Shown: piece after piece, positions 56,843-64,000 of the stretch | Layout: each line of letters opens with the position of its first letter | How positions within the stretch are numbered: the stretch's first letter is position 1 | NCBI GenBank assembly: GCA_963706325.1 | Contig: CAVPLT010000007.1 | Location: 96,001-160,000 of the forward strand | Direction of reading: 5' to 3' | DNA: 64,000 nucleotides | Source: an uncultured Nitrospiraceae bacterium | GTDB taxonomy: Bacteria; Nitrospirota; Nitrospiria; Nitrospirales; Nitrospiraceae | Notes under the pieces: model-generated | What the model saw: the letters and a program-made list of their open reading frames with translations, nothing else | Told to the model about the DNA's origin: nothing | Databases searched by the model: none | Made by a program: the position numbers and the translations under genes

Positions 56843-58735
56843 ATGCGACCAAGCCAACCTCAGAAGCGCAAGTTTGCCCTTGTTCTACCACGCTGTGCGT
56901 CTTCCAGCTTGAGCGTGGTGAGAAAACCGCAGCACCTTCAATCAATCATCGATGCCTATCCGGTCTCTGTCGTCGTCATCGACGAACAGAAAGTGATCCG
57001 GTATGTCAACGCGGCCTGGCGCCGGTTTGCCGATCAATACGGCTGTCAGGCTCATTCATTTGGAATTGGACTCCCTTATCTACAGGTCTGCCGGAAGTCT
57101 AAAGGTCGGCTCGGCAGTGCCGGACGGCCAATCGCGAAGGGAATTGAGCGTCTGTTTTCAGGGGCTATCGAAGAATTTTCACATGAATATGCATGTGGCC
57201 CGGCCGCAAAACGCCTACGGTTCATGTCGAATGGACGCTGCTTTGCCGAGGGACGAACCCTCGCCCGCCGCGTCCTGTTGATACATCAATCGGTCGCACC
57301 AGCCAAACGCGCCATCGAGTTAATTAAGAGACGGGAGAGCAGCCTCAAAAAGTTGTTGGAGTCGACTCCGTTTGTCCCGTGGGAGGCAGATGCCAAAACG
57401 TGGCGCTTCACGTATGTTGGCCCTCAAGTCCAGGCGTTGCTGGGATATCCTCGTGCGGAGTGGTACGAGCCGAATTTTTGGATTACTCACCTGTATGCCG
57501 AAGATAGTGAGCGGACAATAAAGGCATACCAGGAGCTGGTGACCAACCGATCGCACTACGAACTCAAGTACCGAATGGTGTCGAAATCCGGACGGCCGGT
57601 ATGGTTGCGCAATTTTGTGATCGTGGATGGAAGGCATGGGAAGTCCAGAGTGTTCCGAGGCTTTTTCTGCGATGTGACCGCAGACGCGCAAGTGCAAGAA
57701 CGCGACACCTTGCTGCGTATGTTATCCGAGTCCATCGACGAAATCTTTTGGTTTGTGGGGCTGAACCCTTTACGCTTTATTTATCTCAGCCCCGCCGTCG
57801 AGCGGATCATGGGACGGGAAGCAGGTCAATTCTATAGCCGTGACGATTTTTGGTTACAGTGCATCCATGAAGAAGATCGCCAGCGGGTGCAGGAAGCCTT
57901 CTCCGGTTGGTTGAATGGAACATTTGCTGAGTACAAGGTTGAATTCAGAATCGTATTGCCCGATGGCCGGATTCGGTGGCTTGCTGACCATGGCGCATTG
58001 GTCTATGACGGCGGTGGACGTACAAGCTTTGCGACCGGCGTCGCCAAGGACATCACCGCAGAAAAGCAGAATAAAGAAAATTCGCGTCGGTTAAGTGGCC
58101 AGTTGATTTCTGCCCAAGAAGAGGAGCGCAAACGGATCGCGCGTGAGTTACATGACAATGTGAGTCAGGGATTGAGCCTGCTGACCGTCGAGTTGGAACA
58201 GTTGTGTCGACATCAGGACGCCACGTCACACCAACAGGATGCCCTGGCTGCCATGAAACGGCAACTGAAAGTTCTGTCGTCGGACGTCCATGCATTGTCG
58301 CATCAATTGCATCCAGAAAAACTCAAGCACCTTGGACTGGTGTCCGCTATGCGGGCCATGTGCCGAGATGTAGATCGGGCCGGGCTGAGGGTACATTTCG
58401 CTGACCATAGAATTCCACGCCAGGTGCACGACGATATATCCCTCACCCTCTATCGCGTCATGCAAGAGGGGTTGCATAACGTGAGAAAACACAGCGGGAC
58501 CAGCGAAGTTGAGGCAGACTTGTCGAAAGTCTCAAACGCTTTGATTCTTCGTCTGCGTGACCATGGTAGAGGGTTTGATCGGAGCAAGGCGGAATCCGCC
58601 GGAGGGCTCGGATTATCGAGCATGCGGGAACGGCTCTCCTCGGTAGGGGGATCGCTGCTCATCCAATCTGCTCCCGGTGAAGGCACCCTGCTTGAAGCCA
58701 GGGTGCCATTGTTCGATGATGGGCTCCTTTCGTAA
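56843..58735 (+). CDS. Cytoplasmic multi-PAS sensor histidine kinase (HisKA_3, NarX/UhpB type; start uncertain)
   Basis: Three PAS/PAC units; EERKRIARELHD, QEGLHNVRKHS, DHGRGF, GLGLSSMRER; no TM segments. Confidence 0.93.
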   Translation: MRPSQPQKRKFALVLPRCASSSLSVVRKPQHLQSIIDAYPVSVVVIDEQKVIRYVNAAWRRFADQYGCQAHSFGIGLPYLQVCRKSKGRLGSAGRPIAKGIERLFSGAIEEFSHEYACGPAAKRLRFMSNGRCFAEGRTLARRVLLIHQSVAPAKRAIELIKRRESSLKKLLESTPFVPWEADAKTWRFTYVGPQVQALLGYPRAEWYEPNFWITHLYAEDSERTIKAYQELVTNRSHYELKYRMVSKSGRPVWLRNFVIVDGRHGKSRVFRGFFCDVTADAQVQERDTLLRMLSESIDEIFWFVGLNPLRFIYLSPAVERIMGREAGQFYSRDDFWLQCIHEEDRQRVQEAFSGWLNGTFAEYKVEFRIVLPDGRIRWLADHGALVYDGGGRTSFATGVAKDITAEKQNKENSRRLSGQLISAQEEERKRIARELHDNVSQGLSLLTVELEQLCRHQDATSHQQDALAAMKRQLKVLSSDVHALSHQLHPEKLKHLGLVSAMRAMCRDVDRAGLRVHFADHRIPRQVHDDISLTLYRVMQEGLHNVRKHSGTSEVEADLSKVSNALILRLRDHGRGFDRSKAESAGGLGLSSMRERLSSVGGSLLIQSAPGEGTLLEARVPLFDDGLLS

Positions 58736-58742
58736 GGATGAC

Positions 58743-59396
58743 ATGAATAATCTCCGGTTGCTTCTTGCCGACGACCACCTCCTGCTCCTCGATGCGTTCA
58801 AGCGTTTACTTGAGGAACGGTATGACGTCATCGGGACGGCGGTCAACGGTCTGGAGCTGGTTACGTCGGCAATTCGTTTGAAGCCGGACATCATTATCGC
58901 CGATGTGGCCATGCCTCTTCAAAACGGATTGGACGCGGTCAAGCGTGTGAAGAGGTTTCTACCGCATGTCAGAATCATTATCTTGACTGCCATCGAAGAT
59001 CCGGACCTCGCCCAGCGCGCGCTCTCTTCCGGTGTTTCCGGGTATCTGCTGAAGAGCTCCGCAGCCGCGGAATTGTTCGAGGCGCTGCAGGCTGTCTGCT
59101 CTGGCCGACTCTATGTGTCGGGGTCTATTGCCAAGATGCTTGAGGATTGCTCCGCAACCGGCCGAAAAAAACAATCCCCGGAACGAACCCTTAGCGCCCG
59201 TCAGCGTCAGGTCCTGCAATTGTTGGCTGAAGGACATACCATGAAGCAGGCGGCGGCGGAGTTGGGGGTCACGCCGCGTACGATCGCGTTTCACAAATAT
59301 CATGTTATGAAGCTGTTTCGAATGAACTCCAACTCCCAGCTGATCCAGTTGGCTCTGACTGAGCGTCTAATCTCAAATCCCCCTCAATCCTGTTAG
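58743..59396 (+). CDS. NarL/FixJ family response regulator
   Basis: LADDH, D.AMP..NG, GYLLK; LuxR HTH LSARQRQVLQLLAEG. Confidence 0.93.
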   Translation: MNNLRLLLADDHLLLLDAFKRLLEERYDVIGTAVNGLELVTSAIRLKPDIIIADVAMPLQNGLDAVKRVKRFLPHVRIIILTAIEDPDLAQRALSSGVSGYLLKSSAAAELFEALQAVCSGRLYVSGSIAKMLEDCSATGRKKQSPERTLSARQRQVLQLLAEGHTMKQAAAELGVTPRTIAFHKYHVMKLFRMNSNSQLIQLALTERLISNPPQSC

Positions 59397-59405
59397 TTTT
59401 GACAG
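59390..59405. promoter_or_regulatory. Palindromic site copy 4 (CTGTTAGTTTTGACAG)
   Basis: Identical to copy 3; overlaps the regulator stop codon. Confidence 0.75.
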
Positions 59406-59470
59406 TTCCACATAGTCGGCATTGTGCGTAATGTGTCAGGACATCCACTGATCACATACAAAGGTGCAAT

Positions 59471-59927
59471 GTGTGCGCTTCGTTCCGGATTCCTGCTACT
59501 CCGGGGCCGGGAAACAAAGAGGTTCGGCCTCGGCCCAGCGTCGTACTGGCCGACGACAATGCTTTGTTGCTGGATCGAGTAGCAAACCTGCTCGCTGAAG
59601 ATTTCGATGTCGTGGGCCTGGTGTCAAATGGCCGCGATTTGCTGGAGTTTGTCGACCGCTGCCATCCGGACCTGATCGTGTCCGATATTACGATGCCGTA
59701 TGTGGACGGGTTAGAAGTGGCACGCCAACTTCATGAGCGCCGGCGCGACCAGCAAAATCATCTTTCTAACCGTACACGACGATTCGGATTATCTACGGGA
59801 GAGCTTCTTAGTCGGGGCGATGGGATACGTCATTAAAGACAGACTTATTCCAGACCTGCTGCAAGCCATGCATGAAGTCCTGGCAGGACGGCCTTATGTG
59901 TCGGCCTCACCGAATCTACGCCTCTAA
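59471..59927 (+). pseudogene. Frameshifted single-domain response regulator receiver
   Basis: VLADDN...SDITMP..DGL in one frame, SKIIFLTVH...GYVIK in another; shift near 59738. Confidence 0.82.
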
Positions 59928-59958: not shown

Positions 59959-59974
59959 CTGTCACTTTTGACAG
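59959..59974. promoter_or_regulatory. Palindromic site copy 5 (CTGTCACTTTTGACAG)
   Basis: About 90 bp upstream of the Rieske gene. Confidence 0.75.
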
Positions 59975-60063
59975 TATATATCTGCCCTGCGGACTTGTAG
60001 CATTGGCTGCAATTTTCAGGGGGACCACCGTCCTTATCATCCTTAGGGAGACGCAGGTGATCC

Positions 60064-60612
60064 ATGCCAGATACTCATGAGAACGTCACACATCCAGAGG
60101 CAATCTTTACACCCCAAGGCTCACGACGGCGGTTTTTTCAATGGGTCACGAGGGGAGTGATGGGTATCATTGGATTTGCCGTAGGCATTCCGCTGATCGC
60201 GTATGTCGTGTCTCCTGCCCTCACGCGTCGCGAAAAAACCTGGGTTGATGTCGGAGGCGTGAACGAAGTGTCGGTTGACGAACCATCGCAACTTGAGTAC
60301 ATCGCGACCATTCGTGACGGGTATGTGGAAACCAAGACTCAGAAAGCGATATGGGCGATCAAACAGTCGGACGGACAGGTTACCGCCTTTTCTCCAATGT
60401 GCACGCACCTCGGATGCGGGTATACATGGGATAGAGGGGATAAGCATTTCAAGTGTCCCTGCCACGGCAGTGTGTTCGATGCCTCGGGGCATGTCCTAGC
60501 CGGCCCGGCGCCACGGAGCTTGGACCGGCTGCCGTCCAAAGTGGAGAATGGACGGCTCTTGGTTATCTACAAAGATTTCAAATCAGGCGTCCGGGAACAG
60601 ACCGAATTGTAA
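60064..60612 (+). CDS. Rieske 2Fe-2S subunit of a cytochrome bc complex (QcrA/PetC-like)
   Basis: Tat SRRRFF plus TM helix; CTHLGC, CPCHGS, GPAPR. Confidence 0.95.
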   Translation: MPDTHENVTHPEAIFTPQGSRRRFFQWVTRGVMGIIGFAVGIPLIAYVVSPALTRREKTWVDVGGVNEVSVDEPSQLEYIATIRDGYVETKTQKAIWAIKQSDGQVTAFSPMCTHLGCGYTWDRGDKHFKCPCHGSVFDASGHVLAGPAPRSLDRLPSKVENGRLLVIYKDFKSGVREQTEL

Positions 60613-60657
60613 ACAAATGAAATGTTCGAGAGAAAGACAACTCAGGGGGAGGACAAT

Positions 60658-62157
60658 ATGGATGTACGCGCCTTAGAGATCCGGGTCCGGAGGTTCACGG
60701 CAATCCTGGTTGTCGTCTTCGCCGTGGGGATTGGTGATCGATCCGCACTTTCGGCGACGCCCTCTACGAAGGGAGACCAGAAAACCGGAACCACCACGGC
60801 GAAATCCAGCCGTGCTCCCACGTCAATGCTGAAGGCGGTCCTGACCGACGCGCCGCATGTTCCTCCTCCGATCACACGTAAGCAACCTGCGAAGCTCATT
60901 GTGGAATTGGAGGTTACGGAGGTCGATCTTCCCATCTCCGAGGGAGTGGAGTACACGTTCTGGACCTTTGGGGGGAAGGTGCCGGGAAAGTTTATCCGTG
61001 TGCGGCAGGGCGACACGGTGGAGTTTCATCTCATGAACCATCCCGACAGCAGATTTCCGCACAACATTGACCTCCACGCCGTGACCGGTCCGGGAGGTGG
61101 AGCAGCCAGCAGCAATACGGCACCAGGGCGCCAGACGCAGTTCACCTTTCAGGCCCTCAACCCCGGCCTCTATGTCTATCACTGCGCGACCGCACCGGTC
61201 GGTGAACATGTGGCCAATGGAATGTATGGCCTGATTTTAGTCGAACCGACAGCGGGGTTGGCTCCGGTCGACCGGGAATACTATGTGCTCCAAAGCGATT
61301 TCTACACCGCGGGAAATTATCGCGAGCAGGGACACCAGGCCTTTGATATGACCAAAGCCATCGATGAACATGCGACCTATGTCGTATTTAACGGGGCCGA
61401 AGGAGCGTTGCTGGGCGAACATGCGCTCAAGGCCAAGGTTGGAGAGCGTGTACGTCTGTTCGTCGGGAACGGCGGACCGAACCTCGTGTCGAGCTTTCAT
61501 GTGATCGGCGAAATCTTCGATCGCGTATACCCCGAAGCCGGAATGCGTCCTCAGGAACAGGTCCAAACGACGCTTGTTCCAGCGGGCGGCGCTGCCATTG
61601 TCGAGTTCAAGGTTGAGGTTCCCGGCTCCTATAAGCTGGTGGATCACTCTATTTTGCGCGCGTTCAATAAAGGCGCCCTGGGAGAGCTAAAGGTCGAAGG
61701 GCCGGAGAACACATCGGTGTACTCAGGTAAGCAGGTCGAATCTGATTACAATGCGGCGAAATCCCTTGGCGTCCACACGGCGGCATCAATGACCCCTAAA
61801 GCGCCTCCCACGGATGATCCATCTGCACGTCTCGTTGCAGGGGGGACCCTGTACAAGACCTATTGCATGGGGTGTCATCAGGCAGAAGGACAGGGACTGC
61901 AAGGAACGTTTCCGCCGCTAGCGAAGTCGGACTACTTGACGGACAAGTCACGCGCAATCGAAGCGATCGTCAATGGTCTGACCGGGGGCATCGATGTGAA
62001 TGGGCAGCGCTACAACGGAGTCATGCCGCCAATGGGGCATCTGAAGGACGATCAGATCGCCGACATCTTGAGCTACGTTCGCCACTCGTGGGGAAATGAC
62101 GGAGAGGCCGTGTCGGCGGCGGAGGTGGCAGCGGTGCGGGCGAAAACCTCGCATTGA
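60658..62157 (+). CDS. nirK: Copper nitrite reductase fused to a C-terminal cytochrome c
   Basis: HNIDLH, YHC, HVANGM, SSFHVIG, LVDH; CMGCH...MPPM; signal peptide. Confidence 0.96.
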
Positions 62158-62233
62158 GGCGTGGTCTTTTCTCGGGTCATGCTGAGGAGAGTGTTGAGGG
62201 GCGGAGAAACGACCGGCATCCCGGAGGGTCACG

Positions 62234-63559
62234 ATGGCGTCCCGCATATACGAGTGGTTTGACAGCCGCTTGAACTTGAAAGCGATGCAGAAAACGCTGC
62301 TGGACGAAGCGATTCCCGGCGGCGCCAGCTGGATCTATGTGTTCGGGTCTGCCACGCTCTTTATCTTCGGGCTCCAAGCCCTCACCGGGATGTTTCTGGC
62401 CCTCTATTACGCTCCGACGCCAGACCACGCGTATGACAGCGTGCAATTCATCGAAAACCAGGTGACATTCGGCTGGTTCGTGCGCGGCCTGCACCACTGG
62501 GGCGCCTCGGGGATGATCATTGCCGTGGGTCTGCACATGCTGCAAGTTTTCTTGTACGGTGCCTACAAACCGCCGCGCGAACTGATGTGGATGGTGGGCG
62601 TGGTGTTGCTGCTGATCGTCCTGGCCTTTGCGTTCACCGGTTATCTCTTGCCTTGGGACCAGACTGCCTACTGGGCCACGCAGGTCGGGATCAACATGGT
62701 CGGCACGGTGCCCCTGGTGGGTGATGTGCTCATTAAAGTGTTGCGCGGCGGCGAGACGCTGGGGATGCTCACCCTTTCACGGTTTTTTGCCGTGCATGTC
62801 TTGTTTCTTCCGGCGGTGATCGTCACAGGAATTGCGCTCCACCTGATCATACTCCGGCTGGTGGGACCGGCCGGTCCGTGGGATGAACGGAAAGCGGCGT
62901 CGCGCCGTGAAACTTTCTACCCCCGGCAGGTCTATATGGACGCCGTGGTGATGCTCTGTGTCTTTCTTGGGTTGGCGGCATTGGCGACGTGGGCGCCGTT
63001 CCCGCTAGCGGATAGGGCCAATCCGTCCGACACCAGCTTCGTGCCGGTGCCGGAATGGTACTTTCTCTTTTACTATGAGCTACTCAAACACATTCACGGA
63101 CCCTTTGAGCCTTTGGTCACATGGGTCTTGCCGATCGTGTTCGTGCTCATTGTCCTCTTCTGGCCATTGCTCGATTGGAAGAAAACAGTCCGGGCTCCGG
63201 CGTCGCGTCCCATCGGAATGGCGCTCGGCGTTGTGTTTCTGCTGATTGTGTTCTCACTGCTGGGCGTATCCTTGAAAAATCTGTACGCGGTGAAGCGCGT
63301 GGATCCAGGGATAGCGCACGGCAAGGCGCTCTATACCCAGTTCGGCTGTGCGGGGTGCCATCGGATTCATGGGGAGGGCGGGGCCTTGGCGCCGGACTTG
63401 TCCTACGTTGGTGATGTGCGTCCCGATCGCGAATGGCACGTGACACACTTGCGCGATCCCCAGGCTGTTTCACCCGGAAGCATCATGCCGAAGTTTCCTC
63501 TGACAGAGCCGGAATTGAATGACCTGACAAGCTATATGCTGAGTCTTAGACGCTCTTGA
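62234..63559 (+). CDS. Fused cytochrome b / subunit IV / cytochrome c (QcrB-like)
   Basis: LHHWG..LHM and VHV..LHL heme b ligands; TGYLLPWDQ; PEWY; C-terminal CAGCH...SIMP. Confidence 0.95.
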   Translation: MASRIYEWFDSRLNLKAMQKTLLDEAIPGGASWIYVFGSATLFIFGLQALTGMFLALYYAPTPDHAYDSVQFIENQVTFGWFVRGLHHWGASGMIIAVGLHMLQVFLYGAYKPPRELMWMVGVVLLLIVLAFAFTGYLLPWDQTAYWATQVGINMVGTVPLVGDVLIKVLRGGETLGMLTLSRFFAVHVLFLPAVIVTGIALHLIILRLVGPAGPWDERKAASRRETFYPRQVYMDAVVMLCVFLGLAALATWAPFPLADRANPSDTSFVPVPEWYFLFYYELLKHIHGPFEPLVTWVLPIVFVLIVLFWPLLDWKKTVRAPASRPIGMALGVVFLLIVFSLLGVSLKNLYAVKRVDPGIAHGKALYTQFGCAGCHRIHGEGGALAPDLSYVGDVRPDREWHVTHLRDPQAVSPGSIMPKFPLTEPELNDLTSYMLSLRRS

Positions 63560-63665
63560 CTTGATAGCCAATGGAGGACGATTTTTGGAACGAATGCGCC
63601 GGGAGGGTAGGCGAAAAGCAAAGGGCGCTGCATCCAAGCCCGCTCGCGCGCGTGCGCAGACCGGC

Positions 63666-64000
63666 ATGAAAGCGCTGCCTCAGGCGGGACCGTCGGATGC
63701 CCTGGATGAGACGGGCGCAGTTCGAGACGTCGTCCAAAATCATCTCCTGCAGGTCGTGGCATTTCTCGCGATGGAACCCCCGACGACGATGTACCCGGAT
63801 TCCCTTCGTGACGAACGGGTCAAGGTCTTGCGCATGATCCCTCCTCTCACCAGCGGGAACATCGTGCGAGGACAGTTTAAAGGCTATCGTGATGAGCCAG
63901 GAGTGGCCCCGAAGTCGCGCGTTGAGACATACGCCGCAGTTCGATTCAGCATTGACTCATGGCGCTGGGCAGGCGTACCGTTTCTCATCAGGGCAGGGAA
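63666..64000 (+). pseudogene. zwf: Glucose-6-phosphate dehydrogenase lacking its N-terminal NADP-binding domain (runs off the window)
   Basis: Hand translation MKALPQAGPSDAL-DETGAVRDVVQNHLLQVVAFLAMEPP...VRGQF...ETYAA...SWRWAGVPF.IRAG. Confidence 0.8.

Follow-up and report, generated by a model that had tools for sequence, protein, structure and literature searches.

In the route used by denitrifiers, electrons pass from the bc1 complex to a soluble cytochrome c or pseudoazurin and from there to the copper nitrite reductase (CuNiR) NirK (PMC13324648; this and the other papers are cited for the passages concerned). Other described systems join a Rieske/cytochrome b complex to nitrite. In Nitrospira, a Rieske/cytochrome b pair beside the periplasmic octahaem nitrite reductase (ONR) is a precedent, being proposed as its quinol-linked donor (PMC6606698, PMC12342949). 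In anammox bacteria, the bc complexes Kuste4569-4574 and Kustd1480-1485 have extra redox partners, and their high-potential electron is proposed to reach nitrite reduction (PMC12954380). What NirK does in nitrite-oxidising Nitrospira is, according to PMC6606698, undetermined. Here we describe a locus of an uncultured Nitrospiraceae bacterium (assembly GCA_963706325.1, contig CAVPLT010000007.1, positions 96,001 to 160,000, a stretch of 64,000 nucleotides referred to as the window) in which a gene for a NirK with a haem-c domain (NirK-c) lies between the genes for a Rieske protein and a fused cytochrome b/c. We consider it probable that the Rieske/cytochrome b-c complex and NirK-c act together as a branch carrying electrons forward from quinol to nitrite, with nitric oxide (NO) as product.

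The locus resembles these systems in part. Like the ONR module it sets a bc pair next to a periplasmic nitrite reductase, but it involves another bc paralog and a copper enzyme that would form NO instead of an octahaem enzyme that forms ammonium, and in relatives the reductase is fused to cytochrome b. One anammox Rieske protein has the Ser/Phe motif found in the window (PMC12954380), whereas the anammox complexes, as described there, include components for NAD(P) reduction and multihaem proteins, which the window locus does not encode; ORFs and a Pfam scan revealed no multihaem gene in it. The chemistry of the denitrifier route is identical, and electrons likely travel the same way overall (PMC13324648). 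Standard denitrifiers, however, encode the components separately and have an NO reductase as the next step, whereas in the present case the genes form a cluster or a fusion and the search turned up no NO reductase. Neither the cluster nor the fusion was described in the titles, abstract openings and passages searched, and a supplementary table of PMC12342949 could hide the adjacency. The parts are known; their coupling is apparently undescribed.

Three co-oriented open reading frames (ORFs) on the + strand encode the Rieske protein, NirK-c and cytochrome b/subunit IV/cytochrome c. Together with Pfam and NCBIfam scans of the window proteins, by which domains were assigned, they bore out the gene order of the original prediction, which had been made from the sequence alone (Rieske, nirK with a CxxCH domain, cytochrome b with subunit IV and a CxxCH domain). 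The predicted co-orientation with gaps below 80 bp also held: the spacing was 76 bp between nirK and cytochrome b, and 9 bp (start at 60622) or 45 bp (start at 60658) between Rieske and nirK. The longest nirK-c ORF covers 60622-62157 (511 aa), compared with 499 aa from the ATG at 60658; the latter is the likelier start because the L130 ortholog begins there, and GGAGG also precedes that ATG. Motif search and alignment found all cofactor sites, as expected from the claim that the copper and haem ligands are intact. The ratio of nonsynonymous to synonymous substitution rates (dN/dS) was 0.05-0.15 for Rieske, nirK-c and cytochrome b/c alike in two pairwise comparisons; by this measure, purifying selection acts on all three genes.

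In the proposed mechanism, the PEWY site of cytochrome b would oxidise quinol and electrons would move from the Rieske cluster to the haem c bound to cytochrome b, then to the NirK haem and on to the coppers, and NirK-c would reduce nitrite to NO. The scheme presumes a single transcript, periplasmic placement of both haem-c domains, flow in the forward direction and proton pumping by a Q cycle.

NirK-c is classed by sequence as a three-domain haem-c CuNiR of the RpNiR class. It passed the TIGR02376 model (356 bits, cut-off 296), contained Cu-oxidase domains and a cytochrome c domain, and had 3ZIY as its best PDB match (E 1.7e-184, residues 58-496). Alignment to 3ZIY, from which residue roles were set, assigned the type-1 copper ligands H147/C188/H196/M201, the type-2 copper ligands H152/H187/H342 and the catalytic residues D150/H293; the haem domain carries CMGCH (CxxCH) at 415-419 and the Met ligand M468. 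The linker gate tyrosine was kept as Y364, aligned to RpNiR Tyr323, and this residue and the ligands were invariant in alignment A1. RpNiR (3ZIY) and PhNiR (2ZOO) share with NirK-c the domain order, copper ligands, catalytic Asp/His, C-terminal CxxCH/Met haem and gate tyrosine. Unlike them, NirK-c is encoded within a Rieske/cytochrome b cluster, and it differs at two residues near the type-1 copper. None of about 66 relatives examined from other phyla had full bc genes beside it. A change from Met to Glu beside a type-1 histidine was considered as a bc-specific adaptation and rejected, Glu being common in Nitrospirales nirK without bc neighbours. NirK-c has a predicted cleavable signal peptide and is predicted to be soluble and periplasmic.

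Sequence comparison assigns the bc genes to the Nitrospirales CIII_2 type of Rieske/cytochrome b complex. The Rieske protein has a Tat motif (SRRRFF, 20-25) and both cluster boxes (CTHLGC at 113, CPCHGSVF at 131). Cytochrome b has the haem-b ligands H87/H101/H188/H203, PEWY at 273, CxxCH at 372-376 and M418, and a single 441-aa chain holds the Pfam N- and C-terminal domains followed by a cytochrome c domain. An AlphaFold model of this chain (mean pLDDT 63.5, moderate) showed seven long helices, matching the seven membrane helices predicted for it, before the haem-c domain; read with the anatomy of cytochrome b6f, this count would place the fused haem-c domain on the periplasmic side. The protein aligned best to b6 chains and has the same 14-residue spacing of helix-D histidines (H188, H203) as cytochrome b6f, but it differs from b6f in leaving b6 and subunit IV unsplit and in lacking the haem-ci cysteine. 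The original prediction had pointed to that missing cysteine (WIYVFGS); V36 does occupy the position in the alignment, but nirK-free paralogs share the absence. The suggestion that GSVF hints at a lowered Rieske potential was not supported, since 23 of 56 nirK-free Rieske rows have Phe in the second box (GSVF 20, GSSF 2, GSMF 1) and an anammox Rieske with a Ser/Phe motif was measured at +335 mV (PMC12954380). GSVF and WIYVFG, both common without nirK, were rejected as module-specific features. Nitrospira complex III copy 2 (CIII_2, 'QcrBC') likewise consists of a Rieske protein and a fused cytochrome b/c; the cluster as published there has a di-haem cytochrome c (PMC6606698, PMC12342949), whereas the window has nirK-c between the two genes, often joined in sister loci by a mono-haem cytochrome c. 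The window's own genome holds a nirK-free Rieske and cytochrome b/c pair on contig C1, 56% and 74% identical to the window pair, as well as another bc pair and, on C6, a distant nirK of the usual Nitrospira kind.

The cluster is real and conserved, not an assembly oddity. The NirK-c clade was found in 22 of 371 family genomes from six genera, a count that includes the window genome and one split copy. It was absent from 38 other genomes of the window's own genus, in which the sole match belonged to a second lineage described below. We fetched 20 of the 21 other clade loci, and the order Rieske-nirKc-(cytochrome c)-cytochrome b/c recurred in 17, four of them in frameshifted assemblies, so the arrangement is not unique to this assembly, a point on which a synteny check had been proposed. 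Two more loci showed Rieske-nirKc with the sequence ending after nirK, and one (L133) lacked both bc genes. A small mono-haem cytochrome c gene lay between nirK and cytochrome b in 13 of the 17 complete sister loci, and nirK was retained in 17 of 18 fully informative loci although the flanks vary. In five genomes of 1-20 contigs each (G089, G104, G125, G127 and G152), the nirK-bearing cluster held the sole full-length cytochrome b/c match. Metagenomes contributed 79 loci, many of them near-copies, so that the counts are not independent. At 70% identity or more, Rieske lay upstream in 25/27 (flank of at least 500 bp) and cytochrome b downstream in 30/31 (flank of at least 800 bp), with the small cytochrome in 15 of these 30; below 70%, the figures were 2/35 and 0/29. 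Among 40 further hand-picked nirK loci without a haem domain, 33, which are AniA-like and from Nitrospirales, had no Rieske/cytochrome b neighbour and seven had one.

These seven loci belong to a second NirK clade, here called type B. Five of them (L171, L174, L175, L177, L189) have the order Rieske-cytochrome b/c-nirK, with a lipoprotein-like signal; L165 keeps just a cytochrome b remnant, and in L172 the fusion is a single open frame of 557 codons in genome DNA. Three further type-B loci occur in genomes of another family. The NirK tree separated the window clade from type B with support of 100 and 99; the former nests among haem-c NirKs of other phyla and the latter stands apart. An approximately unbiased (AU) test rejected a single common clade, a modest result (p=0.022; 36 chosen rows, LG+G4). 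By these trees, the bc complex recruited NirK twice, from two NirK lineages.

A search for longer cytochrome b homologs returned 93 proteins and four clusters joining cytochrome b, subunit IV, cytochrome c and NirK. These clusters (P0001-P0004, with 37, 3, 1 and 5 members, known as protein clusters alone) are full-length, at 784-817 aa; they passed TIGR02376 and kept the copper ligands. Their linkers of 39-67 residues contain neither a signal peptide nor a cysteine, and the missing signal peptide argues that they are not read-throughs. Two partial fusions, P0094 and P0095, were added to the set. The NirK halves of the fusions are type B, whereas their cytochrome b halves are spread over two or more positions in the tree. 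Among the 371 family genomes a fused match was found only in G118, and on this count the cytochrome b/c-NirK fusion is rare. In G504, G469 and G465, an apparent full-length fusion turned out to be a pair of genes in the same frame, with a stop and a lipoprotein signal, and these three were rejected as fusions. Separately, the NirK P0193, related to type B, has a cytochrome c domain at its N-terminal end as well as a lipoprotein-like N-terminus, and several family genomes have tandem AniA-like nirK pairs with altered copper motifs (L180-L185).

The original prediction described a hard-wired chain from quinol to NirK. The link itself stood, being conserved, present in two lineages and found in fusions; its hard-wired character at this locus was not supported, as the window NirK is predicted to be soluble and a small cytochrome c is encoded in addition in 13 of 17 sister loci. 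In the window, hand-over is more likely to take place by transient contact, whether immediate or via a small cytochrome c, than in a fixed complex, and only the type-B fusions show the hard-wired form, as judged from their sequences. Complex prediction for cytochrome b/c with NirK-c gave a score of 0.00 in both runs and counts neither way. More tentatively, we propose that Nitrospirales may have built a dedicated quinol:nitrite oxidoreductase twice, the most advanced form being one polypeptide with a membrane-integral, tethered CuNiR. Nitrite oxidisers would thereby be able to conserve energy with nitrite as electron acceptor, giving off NO though lacking any NO reductase. As bc complexes usually occur as dimers and NirK as trimers, their fusion into one chain would demand a higher-order assembly of an unusual kind.

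The Nitrospirota quinone has a potential of about +0.1 V. Its calculated potential lies between those of ubiquinone and plastoquinone (PMC11874023), the RpNiR centres are at +290 mV (haem), +266 mV (type-1 copper) and +255 mV (type-2 copper) (PMC13324648), and the nitrite/NO couple is at +380 mV (PMC12954380); with these published values the forward path would be downhill. Menaquinone was rejected as the donor, since MqnA/D (menaquinone synthesis) were not found in the genome.

The lack of an NO reductase, noted earlier for the window, extends by family scoring to the whole genome, which is 96% complete; its sole PF00115 match had its highest score as ccoN, and the gene contains a frameshift in this assembly. 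In a set of 29 genomes, five haem-copper genes gave strong matches; all scored as ccoN or coxA types and none as an NO reductase, weak matches being left unclassified. Hcp, NosZ and PF00042 globins were not found in the genome either, and one truncated globin was. Because no NO reductase was found, the branch is more likely a low-oxygen electron outlet or NO source than part of full denitrification. Genome searches for amoA, PF13447 and P460 were empty, and the controls for these searches were equally silent. Elsewhere in the genome, a cbb3-like ccoN-ccoO-multihaem fusion (G000 C4:978320-981759) is frameshifted here and open in G088 and G286. It is followed by a small cytochrome c 56% like that of the sister nirK loci.

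Several observations weigh against the proposed branch. The window cytochrome b nests among nirK-free cytochrome b/c proteins in a tree made by a quick method, within a well-supported clade of 25 rows in which seven informative members (L190-L196) are without nirK; the bc pair therefore does not need nirK. Conversely, L133 has a NirK-c of the clade without a bc neighbour. We also compared 60 cytochrome b/c loci (56 informative, 4 cut off), in 45 of which Rieske directly adjoins cytochrome b/c. The original prediction stressed that nirK splits the core bc subunits, which is true of the window but not special to nirK: 11 of the 56 informative loci carry an insert of more than 400 bp (cytochrome c 3, globin-GGDEF 3, a 23S-IVP gene 2, no identity assigned 3). 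The fusions sit in the type-B lineage and not in that of the window NirK. Sustained flux without NO reductase, Hcp or NosZ would release toxic NO, and PMC6606698, in the passage cited, considers it unlikely that Nitrospira NirK plays a major part in denitrification. A weak terminator-like match lies at the nirK stop (8 matches in the region against 3.9 +/- 2.3 in shuffles), and no FNR-like or sigma-54-like box was seen upstream in the window. Sister loci share flanking genes as well, and the three genes may thus have been carried along as part of a larger block. A transferred block is suggested by the cytochrome b tree, where the window copy groups with another genus and the C1 copy with its own.

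In other regulatory searches, an FNR-like box was found once, with one mismatch, in 33 upstream regions, and a sigma-70 scan gave 1 site against 2.2 expected. The RNA check covered one run (share 0.06) and returned just short scattered contigs from other organisms, mostly less than 90% alike. The globin-GGDEF inserts are protoglobin-GGDEF genes, possible O2 or NO sensors, between Rieske and cytochrome b/c in three genomes (L204:6320-7438, L210:3889-4995, L215:3885-4991).

Among other explanations, the one that survives best, though we regard it as unlikely, is co-regulation: the genes would share an operon because the same conditions call for both, without any special partnership, NirK-c being fed by the general periplasmic cytochrome c pool, including electrons from nitrite oxidation, and NO would act as a redox regulator. 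The predicted solubility of NirK-c fits this explanation, as do the small cytochrome c encoded on its own in 13 of 17 loci and its homolog (56%) elsewhere in the window's genome. So does the finding that NirK normally receives bc1 electrons through soluble carriers (PMC13324648); a regulatory role of NO has been proposed for Nitrobacter and, tentatively, Nitrospira (PMC6606698). The cytochrome b/c-NirK fusions and the two separate recruitments, however, point to direct electron hand-over, and the genome already has the usual Nitrospira nirK on C6.

Reverse use is distinctly improbable: NirK would oxidise NO to nitrite and the bc complex would lift the electrons uphill to quinone, serving NO removal and reverse electron transport. 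It would suit a genome in which no NO reductase was found and in which three long DMSO-reductase-family alpha genes, read as NxrA-like (below the family cut-off), suggest a nitrite oxidiser needing reverse electron flow. Copper nitrite reductases are reversible, and the nitrate/nitrite couple is at about +420 mV. The nitrite/NO couple (PMC12954380) lies below it. In the description of the characterised RpNiR, however, the enzyme reduces nitrite, and reduction of its haem is what allows nitrite to bind (PMC13324648); its copper potentials below the nitrite/NO couple would disfavour NO oxidation. Least probable of all is that nirK-c entered a mobile accessory island once, as a passenger in a gap that tolerates insertions, and was inherited with the bc genes without a functional link, which would account for the other genes at this slot in 11/56 loci, the repeated absence of nirK within the cytochrome b clade and the variable, island-like flanks, but not for the retention of nirK in 17/18 loci despite those flanks, the purifying selection on the window genes or the occurrence of a second NirK lineage, and of fusions, at complexes of this kind.

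If forward flow to nitrite is the true reading, these nitrifiers could be sources of NO under low oxygen without having an NO reductase. The conserved operon and the natural fusions name a specific electron donor, and the question of what NirK does thereby becomes open to direct experiments. The fusions also add a new type of partner to the tethered copper nitrite reductases, which are models of protein electron transfer. Coordinates are collected in Table 1.

Table 1 Features of the Rieske-nirK-c-cytochrome b/c locus (window coordinates)
Feature	Position	Strand	Basis
Rieske iron-sulfur subunit (QcrA type) with Tat motif, membrane anchor and Ser/Phe second box	60064..60612	+	182 aa; PF00355, motifs, hydrophobic segment 28-46
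Rieske-nirK gap, 45 bp, with GGAGG ribosome-binding-like site; in-frame upstream ATG at 60622	60613..60657	+	Sequence; L130 ortholog start
NirK-c, predicted three-domain CuNiR of the RpNiR/PhNiR class, c-type haem domain at the C-terminus	60658..62157	+	TIGR02376, 3ZIY match, invariant ligands
nirK-cytochrome b gap, 76 bp, without the small cytochrome c gene here; weak 5-bp terminator-like match at 62147-62159	62158..62233	+	Sequence, sister loci
Cytochrome b, subunit IV and cytochrome c in a single chain (Nitrospirales QcrBC / CIII_2 type)	62234..63559	+	441 aa; domains, motifs, model

Upstream of Rieske lie a PAS/HisKA_3 kinase gene (56843-58735), a LuxR-type regulator gene (58740-59396) and, just before Rieske, a second response-regulator gene broken by a frameshift (59471-59927). 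The kinase and regulators were rejected as members of the module, as they had no matches beside sister loci. The 9-mer TTTGACAGT follows each upstream regulator gene (59398-59406 and 59967-59975). After cytochrome b comes a glucose-6-phosphate dehydrogenase fragment without its N-terminal part, at 63561-64000 and continuing to C7:160397. Further downstream are sugar-phosphate genes (aldolase-, phosphoketolase- and phosphorylase-like by eye), and similar genes flank several other cytochrome b/c loci.

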